Shown: positions 3,866 to 14,413 of the stretch, piece by piece | How positions within the stretch are numbered: the first letter of the stretch is position 1 | How the letters are laid out: each line of letters opens with the position of its first letter | UHGV virus genome: UHGV-0201016 | Length of the DNA stretch: 14,600 nt | Origin: a virus | Reading direction: 5' to 3' (one strand) | Program-made: the position numbers and the translations under genes | The notes under the pieces: model-generated | Told to the model about the DNA's origin: nothing | Databases searched by the model: none | The model's input: the letters and a program-made list of their open reading frames with translations, nothing else

Positions 3866-5836
3866 TTAAAGGTCATCAATTAAACCTAAAGGCAAACCGT
3901 CCTCACCAACCGAGCTATAATGAGCGATAATATTCGAAAGTTCACCAGTAGAAAACGAATTAGGCAAATCATTATCAACTAATATAATCTGGCACGGAAC
4001 ATTTTTTCTTTCTGCTTTTTGAACTGTATTCAATAGTTGTTCATAAATATTTTGATACTTCATCGGATCTGACATTCCCTCAAGGTCATCCTCGACTGCA
4101 AGAGTTTCTTTTGAATATTTTTCCTTGGTCTGTTTCCCTAAATATTTGCCAACCGTATCAAATATCAAAAGTAAAGGATGGTTAACATTATGATCTATTG
4201 CATAATCAAGAATAGACAAAAGATACCCAATAGAAGAAATAGTTCTCAAACCTCCGGATGTTATTTTAAAATATTCTTTTTCTCTTATAACAGGAATGTA
4301 ATAGCTTTCAGAGATTTTTATCCCCGTTCTGTTTTTGATATTAATACCCTTCAAATACTGACTAAATCTATCACCCAAACCTTGTAAAATGCCCTCCATG
4401 CTAGGTGCGTTTTTCTTTAACGCCTCCAAGCGTTCAGTTAATGCTTCAATATCTTTTCTCAGTACCTGATACTTTTCAAGCAGTTCCTCTTGCTGGTTTC
4501 TAACCTTCAAATCTTTTACTAACTGCTCCCTAACCTTCTCATTTTTTGATATCTCTTTAATATAAAAATCTCTCTGAGTCAAGAATGGTGTAATCATTGA
4601 CTGGCTTTCTTCGTCAATCAATTCTCTCAACTCGTGAAGTCGTTCATCTAATTCTTTTTTATAACCTGATTCTTTTTTTAATTTAAATGACATTTCTGAG
4701 ATCATGTCATTAATATTTCGTCTACGTCGACTAAGTGAATTCAACTCTTCATTAAGATCTTTTTCTGATGAAATTTCAAATGGAAAATCAGAATCATCTA
4801 TTTTAATGTGGCTATCACAGATTGGACAGGAAAATACTTCCTTATCCAATACACCAATGCGAGAATTTGCTGTTTTAATCGCTTTGAGTTTTTCAATATC
4901 ATTATCATAGTCATTTTTTAACCGCGAATATTTATCAATCTTATCCTCAAGCGCACTAATATTTAATATGCACTCTTTGTATTTAAGCGAAATAAAATTG
5001 TGAGCATCTTTAAATTCTGTATACTGTATGGAATCCGCTTTCATATTTTTATCGAGAGCAGACAAACCTGCAACAAGTTCTTCTAAAACAAGATCTATCC
5101 TATTAATCTCATCATCAATTGATTCAATTGTTTCATAGTCTGTATCGCGAAGAAATTCAGATATTATCTGATACTTCCTATTTAATTCCGTTACTAAACT
5201 ACTTTTTGCAGATATTTCACCTTGGAGTCTGGCGATGCTTTCATCCAACACATTGAACATGTATTTAAAAACTTCTTTCGTAAATGCGTAGCGGGACCAA
5301 TCACCCAATCGCAAGAAAGATTTACTACCAATATCATCCTGACTTACATAAACAAATTTATATATATTTCTAAAACTTAACCTGCGCATCTGTGAATGCG
5401 CTTTAGAAGGAGACACCTTAATTTCAATCTTTGGGAAATTAAGACTATCAAGTAAAAACTCCGAAAAAACACCATCAACATTTGATAATGGGCTATAATT
5501 AGGAGCGTATTTTTTCGGAAAATGTTTATGTAAATCATCAAACTTACAACGATAAACTTCTATTGCTTTTTTATGATCATAGATATCTCTTACGATTGTG
5601 AATACAGTATCATTGATCACTACTTCAAGAGCAGCATAGTTTACTGATGTTTTTATTTCATCTGCTAAATCTATAGAGCTAGCACCTAAAAGATAATTAA
5701 TAAACTCCAGAATGCTTGACTTACCTGTGTCAGAGTCTCCGTAGATAACATTGAGACCTTTATAAAAAGTAGTGACGTAGTTTTTACGAACACCAACAAG
5801 AATCAAACTATTGATATTGAGATATGATTTCATCAT
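3866..5836 (-). CDS. SMC/Rad50/RecN-like ABC ATPase with long central coiled coil and a CxxC motif (LmuB-like position)
   Basis: 656-aa ORF. Walker A GDSDTGKS (aa 33-40, nt 5717-5740); about 300 aa of heptad-like charged sequence; CPIC at aa 337-340 (nt 4817-4828) near the middle of that region; ABC-signature-like ITSGGLRT (about aa 523-530); Walker-B-like HPLLLIFDT (Asp560 followed by Thr, not Glu). N-terminus resembles RecN/RecF/SMC heads. Confidence 0.75.
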   Translation of the reverse strand: MMKSYLNINSLILVGVRKNYVTTFYKGLNVIYGDSDTGKSSILEFINYLLGASSIDLADEIKTSVNYAALEVVINDTVFTIVRDIYDHKKAIEVYRCKFDDLHKHFPKKYAPNYSPLSNVDGVFSEFLLDSLNFPKIEIKVSPSKAHSQMRRLSFRNIYKFVYVSQDDIGSKSFLRLGDWSRYAFTKEVFKYMFNVLDESIARLQGEISAKSSLVTELNRKYQIISEFLRDTDYETIESIDDEINRIDLVLEELVAGLSALDKNMKADSIQYTEFKDAHNFISLKYKECILNISALEDKIDKYSRLKNDYDNDIEKLKAIKTANSRIGVLDKEVFSCPICDSHIKIDDSDFPFEISSEKDLNEELNSLSRRRRNINDMISEMSFKLKKESGYKKELDERLHELRELIDEESQSMITPFLTQRDFYIKEISKNEKVREQLVKDLKVRNQQEELLEKYQVLRKDIEALTERLEALKKNAPSMEGILQGLGDRFSQYLKGINIKNRTGIKISESYYIPVIREKEYFKITSGGLRTISSIGYLLSILDYAIDHNVNHPLLLIFDTVGKYLGKQTKEKYSKETLAVEDDLEGMSDPMKYQNIYEQLLNTVQKAERKNVPCQIILVDNDLPNSFSTGELSNIIAHYSSVGEDGLPLGLIDDL

Positions 5837-6345
5837 TTCTCCTTGAAAACTTGATTTATAACAGAGTTTAACTTAGAGGTAGGCAATGCTTGTAGCGGTA
5901 ACAATGCTTCGGATAGTCGTTTTATTTCTTTAAAATATCCATCAGTCAATGAGCTAGCAAATTCCTTACCTTTTTCAGATAAAAATAATTTAACACTCTC
6001 ATTATTTTTTTTCTCAGCTGAGAGCAATCCCCGCAATGACATAATTTTTATAAGATATTTCACTTTGGAATTGTCGAATAAGATATCTACATTTGATGAA
6101 AAACTCTTTATTGTATAAGTTAACTGGGACTCGACACAAGCAGGCTTTTTCCCCGAAATTGTAAGAGCATAATCAATTTTTGATGGGTTTTTTATCAGAT
6201 ACATAAAAATTTGTATTTTATTAATATCTAATGATAACACTCCTTTTTTGCTATGAGATAATATAGATATAGCAATGGCAAGCATAGCAAAATTCAAGCT
6301 ATACTCTTCATCAAGAGGAATATACGGCAAGTTATTTTTCTTCAT
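5833..6345 (-). CDS. Small protein of unknown function (170 aa), middle gene of the three-gene operon (LmuC-like position)
   Basis: Complete ORF. Its start overlaps the stop of the hydrolase gene by 14 nt, and its TGA overlaps the ATG of the ATPase gene (ATGA at 5833-5836). No recognisable motif. Confidence 0.55.
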   Translation of the reverse strand: MKKNNLPYIPLDEEYSLNFAMLAIAISILSHSKKGVLSLDINKIQIFMYLIKNPSKIDYALTISGKKPACVESQLTYTIKSFSSNVDILFDNSKVKYLIKIMSLRGLLSAEKKNNESVKLFLSEKGKEFASSLTDGYFKEIKRLSEALLPLQALPTSKLNSVINQVFKEK

Positions 6346-7555
6346 GATTACCTCGCCGTAATTGCTCCAAAGTTTCTACGCTGGTTTCAGATGACCAGAC
6401 AATATCTCTATCATTTTTGTTAGCCAGTTGATGCAACATTCCTTTCTTATGTATCGTTTCTAAACTTTTTATAAGAGAATCTAACGACGACTTATCCTCT
6501 TGGGCTATTCGTCTATGAACAGCAGCAATAAATTTATCTGGGGAAATTGAATTCGCGATATATTGCTCATACTCTTCCTGGTAAATCTCCCTTATTTTAG
6601 AATACAAATGACCAAGTAGTTTCCTATCGTAATCACTCGTAAAAATATTTCTCGCAAGCTCAGCATTATAATAATATTCCTTTGCATGCATAGCGATATC
6701 CTGATGTATATCTGCGACAATCATTTTTAAGACGAAATACTCATTATCATATTGTTTCTCATCAGAAAAACGCTCAACACATATCTTCTTGGGTGCTTCT
6801 AAATTTATCTGCTGAATAAATTGCTTTACCGCAACAAACACTGTAGACGAGCTGTTTTCGGGCTTGCAAATTGAGCTATGCCCTTCATTAACTGCAATTG
6901 AGTTATTTCGTTCACTATCCATCGGTAATGCGCTTTTTTTATCAACTATAGTGTCATGAGAACCATAAACATATCTAGTGATAGGAAGTTTTTTGCTACA
7001 ATTTATCCAGCGCCTATTCAATGTATCAGTCGCTTCACTTAACAATCCAAGATCTACTAACTGAGCATTTGAAGATACCATTGAAGTTATATTCGCCAAT
7101 TTAGCACCAAAGTGAGGGACTGCTAACGAAATGAATCCAATTATATTAGATTGTTCCTCATGCTCAACTTTTTTTAGAATTAGATTTTTTGATATTAACC
7201 CCCCCATACTATGGGCAATTATTATAATTCGAGAGTAATCACTTAACGTTACCCTAATCTCAGTATACAATAACTCAGCTATTTCATCAGTTGGTAAATT
7301 TCTCTCTAACTTATTTTTCTTAGAGAAAATACGAGCCAATAATCCTGACGTTTTAGCATACGTTTGTGTAAATTTGGTGAAATAGTTGAAACATGCAATA
7401 TCAAATACATTGCCAATGTCTTCATCTTCTGCTAATAGTTTTGGAAATGAAGTTTCTTTATTAAAGTTCCATGTTTCCAAACCACCATTTAATCCATGTA
7501 CAAATAGTATCAGGCTATCTTTTTTCTCGTGGCTTATCCATTCAACCATGCTCAT
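6332..7555 (-). CDS. Alpha/beta-hydrolase (lipase/esterase-type) fusion protein with a C-terminal all-helical domain of unknown function; candidate effector of the defence operon (LmuA-like position)
   Basis: 407-aa ORF. LILFVHGLNGG (HG oxyanion region); nucleophile elbow IIIIAHSMGGL with the Ser codon at 7208-7210; candidate acid GSHDTIVD; candidate His NEGHSSICK. Residues ~250-407 are charged and helical with no catalytic motif I recognise. AT-rich codon usage. Its last 14 nt overlap the next gene. Confidence 0.7.
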   Translation of the reverse strand: MSMVEWISHEKKDSLILFVHGLNGGLETWNFNKETSFPKLLAEDEDIGNVFDIACFNYFTKFTQTYAKTSGLLARIFSKKNKLERNLPTDEIAELLYTEIRVTLSDYSRIIIIAHSMGGLISKNLILKKVEHEEQSNIIGFISLAVPHFGAKLANITSMVSSNAQLVDLGLLSEATDTLNRRWINCSKKLPITRYVYGSHDTIVDKKSALPMDSERNNSIAVNEGHSSICKPENSSSTVFVAVKQFIQQINLEAPKKICVERFSDEKQYDNEYFVLKMIVADIHQDIAMHAKEYYYNAELARNIFTSDYDRKLLGHLYSKIREIYQEEYEQYIANSISPDKFIAAVHRRIAQEDKSSLDSLIKSLETIHKKGMLHQLANKNDRDIVWSSETSVETLEQLRRGNHEEK

Positions 7556-11503: not shown

Positions 11504-11736
11504 TTCCAGACCCTCCGGCTTTTCAGAAAGGTCAGAGCCTTATTTAACGGACTCTGTTTTTTGGTGCGGATAATGATTCCCTTACGCCCCTTACCGTGGG
11601 TAATGGTGAAGTCAATCGCCCTTGGGCTTTCGTTACGCAATAACTGAGCAATACAACGAGGCTCGTTCATCCTTTCCACCTTAAGCCGCACGGCCATGTC
11701 TTGATTTGCTGTAACTAATGCGATTTTTCCAGTCAT
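11500..11736 (-). CDS. Hypothetical protein (P2 orf78-like), start uncertain
   Basis: The track ORF starts at 11760; the internal Met at 11736 gives 78 aa and less overlap with the upstream gene; 4-nt overlap with the B start. Confidence 0.45.
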   Translation of the reverse strand: MTGKIALVTANQDMAVRLKVERMNEPRCIAQLLRNESPRAIDFTITHGKGRKGIIIRTKKQSPLNKALTFLKSRRVWK

Positions 11737-12037
11737 GCCATTCTGTCGGAGCTTCATCAACTAGCTGGGCTGCGTACTTGTCCCACTCACGGCGATTAAT
11801 CCATAACTCAGCATGACCGCCCGGCTTTAATGGGTCCGTCATATAAAAGGCTGGTAACTTGCCTGCTTTCGCCATTTCAGCAACAGCGCGAGGCGTCTTA
11901 CCGATGTAAAGAGCAAAACCCTCTTTCGAGAGCAAATCCGACGGTGCGGCTGCAAGTTTGATGTCACATTTTTTACTTTTTGTGAGATCAGATACTTTTT
12001 CTCCAACATCGTTATTCATTTCTGATCCAATACTCAT
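11681..12037 (-). CDS. cox: Cox-like excisionase / early-promoter regulator (HTH), start uncertain
   Basis: HTH-like segment FALYIGKTPRAVAEMAKAGKLPAFYMTDP resembles the P2 Cox / 186 Apl family. The track start is TTG at 12067; ATG at 12037 has GAGG 8 nt upstream. Confidence 0.6.
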   Translation of the reverse strand: MSIGSEMNNDVGEKVSDLTKSKKCDIKLAAAPSDLLSKEGFALYIGKTPRAVAEMAKAGKLPAFYMTDPLKPGGHAELWINRREWDKYAAQLVDEAPTEWHDWKNRISYSKSRHGRAA

Positions 12038-12141
12038 TTTGATATCCTCAACTTTGGTGCCATTCAACCAGAGCTATTTGAAGCCGCTCTGCGTTGTTCT
12101 GGTGTGTCGCATACAACATAAATTACGAGATACGACAATTC
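12038..12141. promoter_or_regulatory. Immunity switch region between divergent cox-like and C-repressor genes (expected site of early and repressor promoters and operators)
   Basis: 104-bp intergenic region between divergent regulators. Only weak sigma70-like hexamers (for example TTGTTC-N17-CATAAA toward C) could be picked out by eye; no element is resolved. Confidence 0.35.
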
Positions 12142-12453
12142 ATGTCAAATACACAAATCACATCTCAAGCAGAGAAACTCGCACTTATTCGGGAATCAGA
12201 AAGAATGACAAGGAAGCAAGTTGCTGAATTAACTGGAATTAACTACAACACCTATGCTGGATATGAGCAGGGAAAAGTAAAGATGTCTTTTGACGCAGGT
12301 ATGAAATTTTTCAAGCCAGAAAGATTTCGCAAGTACCGTGACTGGTTCATGTTTGATGAAACTGATCCCGCTGGCGGACAAATAGCCCCGGCGCTCGCGC
12401 ACATTGGGCAAGACTCAACAACCTTGCACCACTCAGACCAAAAGACTGGCTGA
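12142..12453 (+). CDS. C: Immunity repressor, P2 C-type (Xre-like HTH), 103 aa
   Basis: HTH segment RKQVAELTGINYNTYAGYEQGK. The track start at 12094 is TTG; the first ATG (12142) gives about 100 aa, as for P2 C. It lies upstream of and co-oriented with int, as in P2. Confidence 0.75.
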   Translation: MSNTQITSQAEKLALIRESERMTRKQVAELTGINYNTYAGYEQGKVKMSFDAGMKFFKPERFRKYRDWFMFDETDPAGGQIAPALAHIGQDSTTLHHSDQKTG

Positions 12454-12546: not shown

Positions 12547-13542
12547 ATGTCTATTAAAAAGCTCGATGATGGTCGTTATGAAGTGGACGTCAGACCGCAG
12601 GGTGCAGATGGAAAACGTATCAGGCGGAAATTTAAAACTAAAGGTGAAGCTCAAGCATTCGAACGTCATGTGCTGGTTAACTACCACAACAAAGAGTGGC
12701 TGGAGAAGCCAGCCGACCGCCGAACTCTTACAGAGTTGTTAGGCAGATGGTGGATATATCACGGAAAATCACATGAGCGTGGAAATATTGAACGGGGGCG
12801 TTTGACGACAATAATCGCCAAATTTGCAGAAATGGGAGTGTCCAGAGCTGACCAGTTAACAAAGAAAACGATAACTGATTATCGAGTTGTAATGATGAAC
12901 GATGGTCTAAAACCAGCCAGCGTAAATCGGCATCTGGCAATAATGAGCGGGATGTTCACCAAGTTAATTGACGCCGGTGAATACCACTCTCACAACCCGT
13001 TCCGTGAGGTTAAGCGGTTACGTGAAGCTGTTACAGAAATGGCTTTTTTGTCCAGTGAAGAGATTACGCGGCTGTTATCCATGCTTGATGGTGATGAGTT
13101 AAATGCAACTCTGGTCTGCCTTTCTACTGGTGGACGCTGGAGTGAAGTGTCTAATTTGAAAGCTGAACACATCATTAACCAGATGGTTACGTTTATGAAA
13201 ACTAAAAACGGAAAGCGCAGGACAATTCCCGTTTCGCAGGACCTGATTAAAAGGATCAAGACCAAAAATTCAGGCAGGCTTTTTAATGCCAGTTACTACA
13301 AAGTGCGTAACGCTCTCAGGGAAGTAAAACCCGATTTACCTGACGGACAAGCAGTACATGTTTTGAGGCATACATTTGCCACACATTTTATAATGAATGG
13401 AGGTAACATAATCACATTGCAGCGCATCCTGGGTCATTCTAACATTCAGCAAACTATGACCTACGCACACTTTGCACCGGATTTCTTACAAGATGCTGTG
13501 ACTCTTAACCCGGTGTCAGGAATGTCCATAATGCGTCCATAA
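12547..13542 (+). CDS. int: Tyrosine integrase, P2 Int family (331 aa)
   Basis: GGAGGG lies 5 nt upstream of the ATG. Catalytic-box motifs HVLRHTFATHF and TMTYAHF are present; the N-terminus MSIKKLDDGRYEVDVRP is typical of P2/186 integrases. Confidence 0.9.
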   Translation: MSIKKLDDGRYEVDVRPQGADGKRIRRKFKTKGEAQAFERHVLVNYHNKEWLEKPADRRTLTELLGRWWIYHGKSHERGNIERGRLTTIIAKFAEMGVSRADQLTKKTITDYRVVMMNDGLKPASVNRHLAIMSGMFTKLIDAGEYHSHNPFREVKRLREAVTEMAFLSSEEITRLLSMLDGDELNATLVCLSTGGRWSEVSNLKAEHIINQMVTFMKTKNGKRRTIPVSQDLIKRIKTKNSGRLFNASYYKVRNALREVKPDLPDGQAVHVLRHTFATHFIMNGGNIITLQRILGHSNIQQTMTYAHFAPDFLQDAVTLNPVSGMSIMRP

Positions 13543-13630
13543 ACCAGAGTTAACTAGAGCCAATTGAAGCGATATGAGTAATTTAACTAATTGTAATACA
13601 ACAGAAAATACCGCTACGGCGGGGGCTACC
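13543..13630. other. attR junction region (phage/host boundary), core not resolved
   Basis: This 88-bp interval separates the int stop from the first codon with recognisable PflA homology. The P2 attP core is not present, so the element has a different site specificity. Confidence 0.35.
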
Positions 13631-14371
13631 AAGTCAGTTATTGGTCGCATTCACTCCTTTGAATCCTGTGGAACCGTAGACGGCCCAGGTATTCGCTTTA
13701 TCACCTTTTTCCAGGGCTGCCTGATGCGCTGCCTGTATTGTCATAACCGCGACACCTGGGACACGCATGGCGGTAAAGAAGTTACCGTTGAAGATTTGAT
13801 GAAGGAAGTGGTGACCTATCGCCACTTTATGAACGCTTCCGGCGGCGGCGTTACCGCATCCGGCGGTGAAGCAATCCTGCAAGCTGAGTTTGTTCGTGAC
13901 TGGTTCCGCGCCTGCAAAAAAGAAGGCATTCATACCTGTCTGGACACCAACGGTTTTGTTCGTCGTTACGATCCGGTGATTGATGAACTGCTGGAAGTAA
14001 CCGACCTGGTAATGCTCGATCTCAAACAGATGAACGACGAGATCCACCAAAATCTGGTTGGAGTTTCCAACCACCGCACGCTGGAGTTCGCTAAATATCT
14101 GGCGAACAAAAATGTGAAGGTGTGGATCCGCTACGTTGTTGTCCCAGGCTGGTCTGACGATGACGATTCAGCGCATCGCCTCGGTGAATTTACCCGTGAT
14201 ATGGGCAACGTTGAGAAAATCGAGCTTCTCCCCTACCACGAGCTGGGCAAACACAAATGGGTGGCAATGGGTGAAGAGTACAAACTCGACGGTGTTAAAC
14301 CACCGAAGAAAGAGACCATGGAACGCGTGAAAGGCATTCTTGAGCAGTACGGTCATAAGGTAATGTTCTAA
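13574..14371 (+). CDS. pflA: Pyruvate formate-lyase activating enzyme (glycyl-radical activase, radical SAM) with a 19-codon N-terminal extension; canonical start position is AAG
   Basis: CLMRCLYC radical-SAM cluster motif; residues 21-265 match E. coli PflA (246 aa, [14 protein letters not shown]...) as recalled. Codon 13631-13633 is AAG where ATG is expected, and the only in-frame start is ATG at 13574. Confidence 0.85.
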
Positions 14372-14383
14372 TTTCCCCGTAAA

Positions 14384-14413
14384 GCGGCAACTTTATTGAG
14401 TTGCCGCTTTTTT
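14384..14413 (+). terminator. Rho-independent terminator downstream of pflA
   Basis: GCGGCAAC (14384-14391), 8-nt loop, GTTGCCGC (14400-14407), then TTTTTT (14408-14413). Confidence 0.6.

Follow-up and report, generated by a model that had tools for sequence, protein, structure and literature searches.

A phiD145-type P2-like prophage probably re-heads pflA with an in-frame, phage-borne leader

The classical examples of integrations that carry a gene end are those of phage 21 and e14 in icd and those at the 3' ends of tRNA genes. In such gene-end-restoring phages the attachment core overlaps the coding sequence and the phage arm completes the open reading frame (ORF), so that the gene can survive integration, and this is also the arrangement in the DNA analyzed here, a stretch of 14,600 nucleotides from the virus genome UHGV-0201016 (from now on, the window). 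However, the classical phages replace the 3' end of a gene, whereas in the window the 5' end of pflA is the one replaced; the native pflA promoter and ribosome-binding site are displaced as well, and instead of a copy of the displaced host end the phage brings an unrelated leader of 20 codons, which makes the protein longer. HK022, for its part, replaces the torS promoter on integration (PMC13492144).

Among described phages, phiD145 and phiD160 (partial GenBank entries AM158280, AM159077, AJ298559 and AM159075) resemble the window in being of the P2 type, with a cox-C-int module and P2-type arm repeats. Their attB was placed at MG1655 coordinate 950293 (PMC3448106, Table 1), and the same source attributes the site to Karlsson et al. 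2006 (J Bacteriol 188:3923) and Mandali et al. 2010 (Virology 408:64). The copy in the window differs from them by an internal deletion of about 9 kb. In NC_000913.3, pflA occupies 950340-951080 on the minus strand, and after a shift of 777 nt, which we take to be the offset between this version and the older (2011-era) version of MG1655, the published coordinate corresponds to pflA nt 11, inside the 13-bp core found in the window (pflA nt 3-15). The junction in the window is therefore assigned as attR of a P2-like (Peduovirus) prophage of the phiD145 type at its published site, on the basis of the attB coordinate, the cox-C-int module, the P2-type integrase and the arm repeats.

The phiD145 integration site has also been assigned to ECA29 of Pectobacterium atrosepticum SCRI1043 (PMC3448106), and a 2026 review, citing earlier work, states that ECA29 "disrupted the pflA gene" (PMC13492144). 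The ECA29 integrase is 74% identical to that of the window and the layout is the same, with int followed by a pflA of 265 aa. The ECA29-type prophages also carry a 20-codon in-frame leader ending in AAG, as the window does, whereas the leader sequence and the host differ. While the literature speaks of disruption, the sequence contains an intact, re-headed pflA ORF.

Since the phage class is known, the site is published and the 265-aa PflA is annotated in RefSeq (with the exact protein on at least 1,000 contigs), the junction itself was already known. What may be new is a sequence-unconstrained in-frame start cassette present across genera, and its survival in prophage scars. Our main reading, to which we assign a probability of about 0.8, is that positions 13543-13645 constitute a phiD145-type attR, where a phage leader re-heads pflA as a 265-aa ORF that the phage keeps open. 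The features concerned are the following:

11681-12067, minus strand: cox, excision/switch regulator (Pfam Phage_Cox, E=1.9e-29; Cox family protein in E. coli E308)
12154-12453, plus strand: C, immunity repressor (HTH Pfam matches; HTH regulator in E308)
12547-13542, plus strand: int, P2-type tyrosine integrase of 331 aa (Pfam Int_N and Phage_integrase)
13524-13542, plus strand: two direct repeats GTCCATAA, 11 bp apart, overlapping the int stop (repeat search; present in all relatives)
13574-13633, plus strand: phage-derived leader, ATG plus 18 codons plus AAG, in frame with pflA (same sequence in the free-phage attP)
13633-13645, plus strand: 13-bp common core GTCAGTTATTGGT, pflA nt 3-15 (identical in attB, attP, attL and attR)
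13634-14371, plus strand: host pflA from codon 2 to the stop, PFL-activating enzyme, radical SAM (3C8F identity, Pfam, all 5,426 E. coli genomes)
14381-14410, plus strand: native intrinsic terminator after pflA (the only plus-strand terminator-like site from C to the end of pflA)

The best match, E. coli E308, has a P2-like prophage between pflB and pflA, which extends from ogr through genes for tail, lysis, head, terminase and portal to replication gene A, cox, C and int, after which PGAP annotates a pflA of 798 nt (protein WP_000067979.1). In the window the cox - Pe/Pc - C - int lysogeny module adjoins the attachment site in the same order as in E308. The coordinates of cox are those of the maximal ORF, and its true start is probably internal. 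The integrase is 99-100% identical in amino acids to those of 20 phage records (Peduovirus pro147, P24A7b, D8, 11W and others) and 55% identical to that of P2. An integrase scan of IMG/VR returned 99-100% identical copies only, most of them ending 3 nt past the int stop, and is thus not informative on leader diversity. The GTCCATAA repeats match the reverse complement of the P2-type arm-site consensus tgTGGaCa (PMC3448106), which makes them the probable arm-type sites for Int in the P arm; attL and attP carry GTCCACAC and GACCACAT on the P' side.

At the junction, the int stop TAA (13540-13542) is followed 31 nt downstream by ATG 13574-13576, from which the frame continues for 19 more codons, the last being AAG 13631-13633, and then through TCA GTT ATT GGT CGC ATT CAC (SVIGRIH...) to complete an ORF of 265 aa (13574-14371). 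Apart from this ATG, the frame contains no ATG, GTG or TTG from the stop upstream of it to the canonical start position of pflA. The AAG occupies the slot of the pflA ATG of E. coli K-12: a K-12-like strain reads ...GGAGAAACACCGCAATGTCAGTTATTGG at the pflA start, so that ATG is replaced by AAG in the window, where the canonical ATG-TCA start with its native Shine-Dalgarno GGAG is missing and AAG with phage DNA upstream is found instead. A GAAG motif lies at 13566-13569, 4 nt 5' of ATG 13574, and the G-rich GGCGGGGG at 13618-13625, 5 nt 5' of AAG. The sequence-only reading had described the AAG at the canonical start, PflA homology starting at SVIGRIH (where the 3C8F chain also starts), a frame open upstream to an ATG about 30 bp past int, and a weak GAAG Shine-Dalgarno before it, and these descriptions were borne out.

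The alignment to prophage-free E. coli that the same reading had proposed was carried out with a 501-nt junction query against 5,426 complete E. coli genomes. In all prophage-free genomes host identity starts at window positions ~13630-13633, and comparison with a K-12-like strain (host ...GGAGAAACACCGCAATGTCAGTTATTGGTCGC against window ...GGCGGGGGCTACCAAGTCAGTTATTGGTCGC) places its beginning at G13633, so AAG is no host SNP. Direct alignment with the same strain gave no similarity to the pflB-pflA intergenic region upstream of G13633. The native upstream region of pflA has no counterpart of the phage leader, which adds 20 new residues. As for the other end of the prophage, attL of E308 reads ...GGAGAAACACCGCAATGTCAGTTATTGGTgacattttttga, with the native pflA upstream region and ATG intact; the native ATG, Shine-Dalgarno and promoter region are now beside pflB, about 31 kb away. 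The free-phage attP reads ATGagtaat...accAAGTCAGTTATTGGTgacattttttga, so that ATG...AAG-TCAGTTATTGGT is already present in the phage; the leader is unchanged in free phage genomes, where it continues beyond the core and closes as an ORF of 27 aa. Only GTCAGTTATTGGT is shared by attB, attL, attR and attP, and strand exchange, judged from these four sequences, must fall inside this 13-bp core. By the same comparison, AAG and the entire leader are phage-borne.

In E308, the displaced pflA start at attL (L003, 10012-10038) heads an 8-codon ORF, MSVIGDIF*, which is directed at the prophage ogr on the opposite strand, with a hairpin terminator between them. An inverted repeat around the core, ACCAA-N8-TTGGT, was considered as a reason for the AAG and was dropped, as it is not conserved in relatives and the repeat search reported no inverted repeat.

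The entire 501-nt junction query, including int, was matched by 405 of the 5,426 complete E. coli genomes (7.5%), E24377A and APEC O78 among them, and the pflB-pflA region is uninterrupted and of the K-12 type in 5,021. Both numbers add up to 5,426, so every interrupted site in this collection is of this one type.

Whether a frame of this length is open by chance cannot be judged from one sequence, and relatives were used instead. A search with the 265-aa protein gave other PflA proteins of 265 aa with different, alignable leaders. As this set is biased to open frames, an unbiased, integrase-based sample was used: 47 integrases (67-100% identity) were aligned and one genome per species was scanned. 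Twelve loci were found with pflA directly after int (integrases 71-100% identical), belonging to Escherichia albertii, three Scandinavium species, Pseudescherichia vulneris, Rahnella ecdela, Serratia nevei, S. proteamaculans, a Pectobacterium species, Yersinia nurmii, Y. alsatica and Y. vastinensis. The spacing between int and pflA is identical in all twelve, and all have an in-frame upstream ATG, which is codon -18 in the two Serratia and codon -20 in the other ten. The pflA frame is free of stops along the stretch in every one of them, and the other two frames contain 0-5 stops. The canonical position is AAG or AAA in 10 of the 12, while Rahnella ecdela and Serratia proteamaculans keep ATG there. 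Within the leader, pairwise differences are distributed evenly among the three codon positions (0.32/0.47/0.43), with no third-position bias, whereas the body of pflA shows the pattern of purifying selection (0.06/0.03/0.39-0.46). The even substitutions in the leader argue that its peptide sequence is not under selection, although its ATG, its length and its uninterrupted frame persist; judging from these alignments, it is only the open frame of the leader that appears to be maintained. The constant length and part of the conservation could, however, reflect attP geometry (the arm-to-core distance and the place of the IHF site in P2) and not coding, for which reason the argument from selection is good without being conclusive.

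The integrase scan yielded 12 other intact int-pflA junctions (L093-L102, L148 and L150), and 10 of them share with the window a GGG triplet at 13622-13624, the fourth codon before the canonical start. In the two that keep ATG, Rahnella ecdela and Serratia proteamaculans, the position of this triplet would suit a Shine-Dalgarno, and it may otherwise be part of a core-type Int binding site. The ECA29-type junction has GAA in its place, and GGG has been lost in all three of the prophage scars described next.

An integrase gene is missing from three loci in which pflA bears the leader: L005 of Salmonella enterica, and L007 and L010 of two other lineages. Directly upstream of the leader they contain a degraded 3' end of int (tblastn E=2e-22, 6e-10 and 2.5e-6, respectively), which identifies the three loci as prophage scars. 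About 150-230 nt of the int 3' end persist in them together with an intact leader-pflA ORF. The leader ATG is the first in-frame start in these remnants and the only one near pflA in L005; L007 and L010 have an extra in-frame GTG at codon -1 or -2. The three loci came from the protein search and are consequently biased to intact ORFs; with this in mind, the survival of leader-pflA in scars would be hard to reconcile with a dead gene.

In L005 (contig AANRCF010000043, 1470-3798) pflB and pflA are separated by a SopD-family effector gene, next to which stand the degraded 3' end of int and a phage-type leader joined to pflA (MSNLNDCIKKENTAAAAEKK-PIIGRIH), which suggests that the effector gene arrived with, or beside, a prophage since decayed at the pflA attachment site. 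A search for sopD2 together with pflA/pflB gave nothing useful. The idea that all Salmonella have the leader was dropped, the exact L005-type protein being found on three short contigs only.

Regarding expression, C, int and leader-pflA are co-directional, with no terminator-like site between C and pflA. In P2, the Pc promoter drives the lysogenic operon of C and integrase (PMC3936717). C is the first gene of this operon in the window, and Pc should sit in the spacer of ~90 nt between cox and C. As Pc must stay on in a lysogen, read-through from it is a plausible constitutive source of pflA transcript, and pflA is probably transcribed by Pc read-through, by a weak promoter located in the 3' end of int, or by both. 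A promoter-like TTAACC-16-CATAAT lies at 13505-13532, but the scan that found it gave 4 sites against 4.7 expected by chance in shuffled sequence and, being no better than chance, supports no promoter claim. That ~150-230 nt of the int 3' end are kept in all three scars is a weak hint of a promoter there. Translation would start at ATG 13574, whose weak Shine-Dalgarno (GAAG) has equally weak equivalents in the relatives. The RNA of 13540-13640 is no more structured than shuffled controls (z = 0.29), its start region is A/U-rich, and no Rfam match was found in the window; an RNA element at the junction was rejected on these grounds.

Some of the relatives, from Rahnella, Serratia, Pectobacterium and Yersinia (L097-L102, L148 and L176), show a perfect TATAAT between the arm repeats, where the window reads CATAAT (13527-13532), ~45-50 nt before the ATG of the leader. 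This region is also constrained by int coding and by Int binding. If a promoter did overlap the Int arm sites, transcription of pflA would be expected to be sensitive to Int binding.

With respect to the protein, residues 21-265 are 100% identical to the crystallized PFL-activating enzyme of E. coli (PDB 3C8F), so the product of the ORF corresponds to the mature enzyme plus a 20-residue leader; Pfam gives Radical_SAM (E=4.6e-28) and Fer4_12. In an AlphaFold2 model built with 103 sequences (mean pLDDT 89), leader residues 1-17 are below 50, the first strand begins at residue 24, and the enzyme body is mostly at 87-98 per 10-residue block, with 78 for residues 31-40. In keeping with this model, the leader is probably a tolerated, disordered N-terminal tail on an otherwise normal enzyme.

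The sequence-only reading had left two origins for the 5' end: either the prophage end supplies it, or this is host sequence in which AAG results from a T-to-A mutation of the start codon and GGCGGGGG is the native Shine-Dalgarno. The first of these stands, given that host identity begins at G13633, that the DNA upstream is phage DNA and that attP already contains the leader. The second has in its favor the single base that separates ATG from AAG, and is refuted by the comparison of attL, attR, attB and attP: upstream of G13633 the window is unlike the pflB-pflA intergenic region and identical to the free-phage attP, and genomes of the same type have the native ATG and upstream region intact at attL, which together establish a phage-supplied 5' end and exclude a point mutation. 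The native upstream sequence is GGAGAAACACCGCA and not GGCGGGGGCTACCA, and GGCGGGGG lies upstream of the host boundary, so that the G-rich motif is phage sequence and was wrongly taken for a host signal. The concern that reference pflA genes might also read AAG is answered by the 5,021 genomes with prophage-free pflA, which have ATG there. The leader could also have traveled in the opposite direction, as an ancestral 5' extension of host pflA in some enterobacteria that a phage captured into its attP. The leader-pflA loci of Salmonella and of two further lineages, which lack an integrase gene, would agree with this, as would the N-terminal extensions that Providencia PflA has of its own; nevertheless, all three integrase-less loci retain degraded int 3' ends, and most PflA proteins of Enterobacterales have 246 aa and start with MS(V/T/I), which makes a host origin very unlikely.

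A more serious, although still improbable, alternative is that integration inactivates pflA, the leader ORF being fortuitous or a by-product of DNA constraints on the attP arm, and that lysogens lack PFL activation. The weak Shine-Dalgarno, the lack of a convincing promoter, the leader peptide not being conserved at the amino-acid level and the statement in the literature that ECA29 disrupts pflA (PMC13492144) are all compatible with inactivation. Against it, junctions from independent lineages have an in-frame ATG and no stops in 12 of 12 cases, with 0-5 stops in the other frames, pflA is intact and shows the purifying-selection pattern in lysogens and in old remnants, the junction occurs in 7.5% of complete E. 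coli genomes, and the ECA29-type junction is likewise a 265-aa in-frame ORF. We thus prefer re-heading of pflA by the prophage. The sequences themselves show that the prophage has recombined with the first pflA codons inside GTCAGTTATTGGT, leaving the native promoter region, Shine-Dalgarno and ATG at attL by pflB and joining the body of pflA to the phage P arm, and that the P arm provides the in-frame ATG 13574 and 19 codons ending in AAG, giving rise to the 265-aa ORF. Beyond this, the leader ATG is probably the working start codon, and the phage lineage would keep the leader open and in frame so that integration spares pflA. With less assurance, we lean towards the broader proposal that phiD145-type phages have in their attP arm a conserved start cassette, consisting of ATG and ~19 unconstrained codons, which stays open and in frame across six genera (Escherichia, Scandinavium, Rahnella, Serratia, Pectobacterium and Yersinia), re-heads pflA on integration, with probable transcription from the prophage, and may outlast the prophage itself.

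In practical terms, these results guard against reading the AAG as a start-codon mutation and against calling pflA a pseudogene in these strains. If the proposal is true, such strains would make a PFL activase with a 20-residue phage tail, expressed from prophage signals and not from the native constitutive promoter, and anaerobic formate metabolism could change, reversibly upon prophage excision. The statement that ECA29 disrupts pflA would have to be corrected to re-heading, and the junction would illustrate clearly how the evolution of a phage arm can serve solely to keep a host gene translatable. Moreover, a decayed prophage would leave the cassette as the permanent 5' end of pflA, making the phage a source of N-terminal evolution of a core enzyme.

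Integrases of ~71% identity were also found away from pflA, upstream of pyrE in L103 (Yersinia sp. HM-2024), L104 (Erwinia psidii) and L105 (Y. pekkanenii), where they sit just past a terminator-like GTCGCCTTTTTTTT. The switch between pyrE and pflA as targets occurs within one integrase clade, at the identity level of some pflA-targeting members, and therefore integrase similarity alone cannot define the pflA-targeting group. Providencia PflA proteins (P0007, P0012, P0135-P0145 and others) have variable, threonine-rich N-terminal extensions of their own (244-269 aa in total), such as MSTTQKTIPTTEISTTSPPATF-GRIH, and are without the canonical MSV start.

In the window, the 3' end of the baseplate gene J is joined at ~1618/1619 to residue 293 of terminase (gpP), an internal deletion that removes about 9 kb compared with E308, covering baseplate, tail, lysis and head genes and the first half of the terminase gene. 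This J-terminase junction was found in none of the 5,426 complete E. coli genomes. With an incomplete virion and lysis gene set, the prophage of the window is defective for particle formation, while its cox and int genes seem intact.

The P2 cargo hotspot between the portal gene Q and gene A is occupied in the window by a three-gene Lamassu anti-phage system (3866-7555, minus strand), whereas the E308 cargo at this hotspot is a hypothetical protein and an AAA ATPase. The Lamassu genes are:

6332-7555, minus strand: LmuA, alpha/beta hydrolase and ABC-3C CTD8 (PADLOC E=6e-109)
5833-6345, minus strand: LmuC, ABC-3C MC4 (PADLOC E=4e-52)
3866-5836, minus strand: LmuB, SMC-like ATPase (PADLOC E=5e-235)
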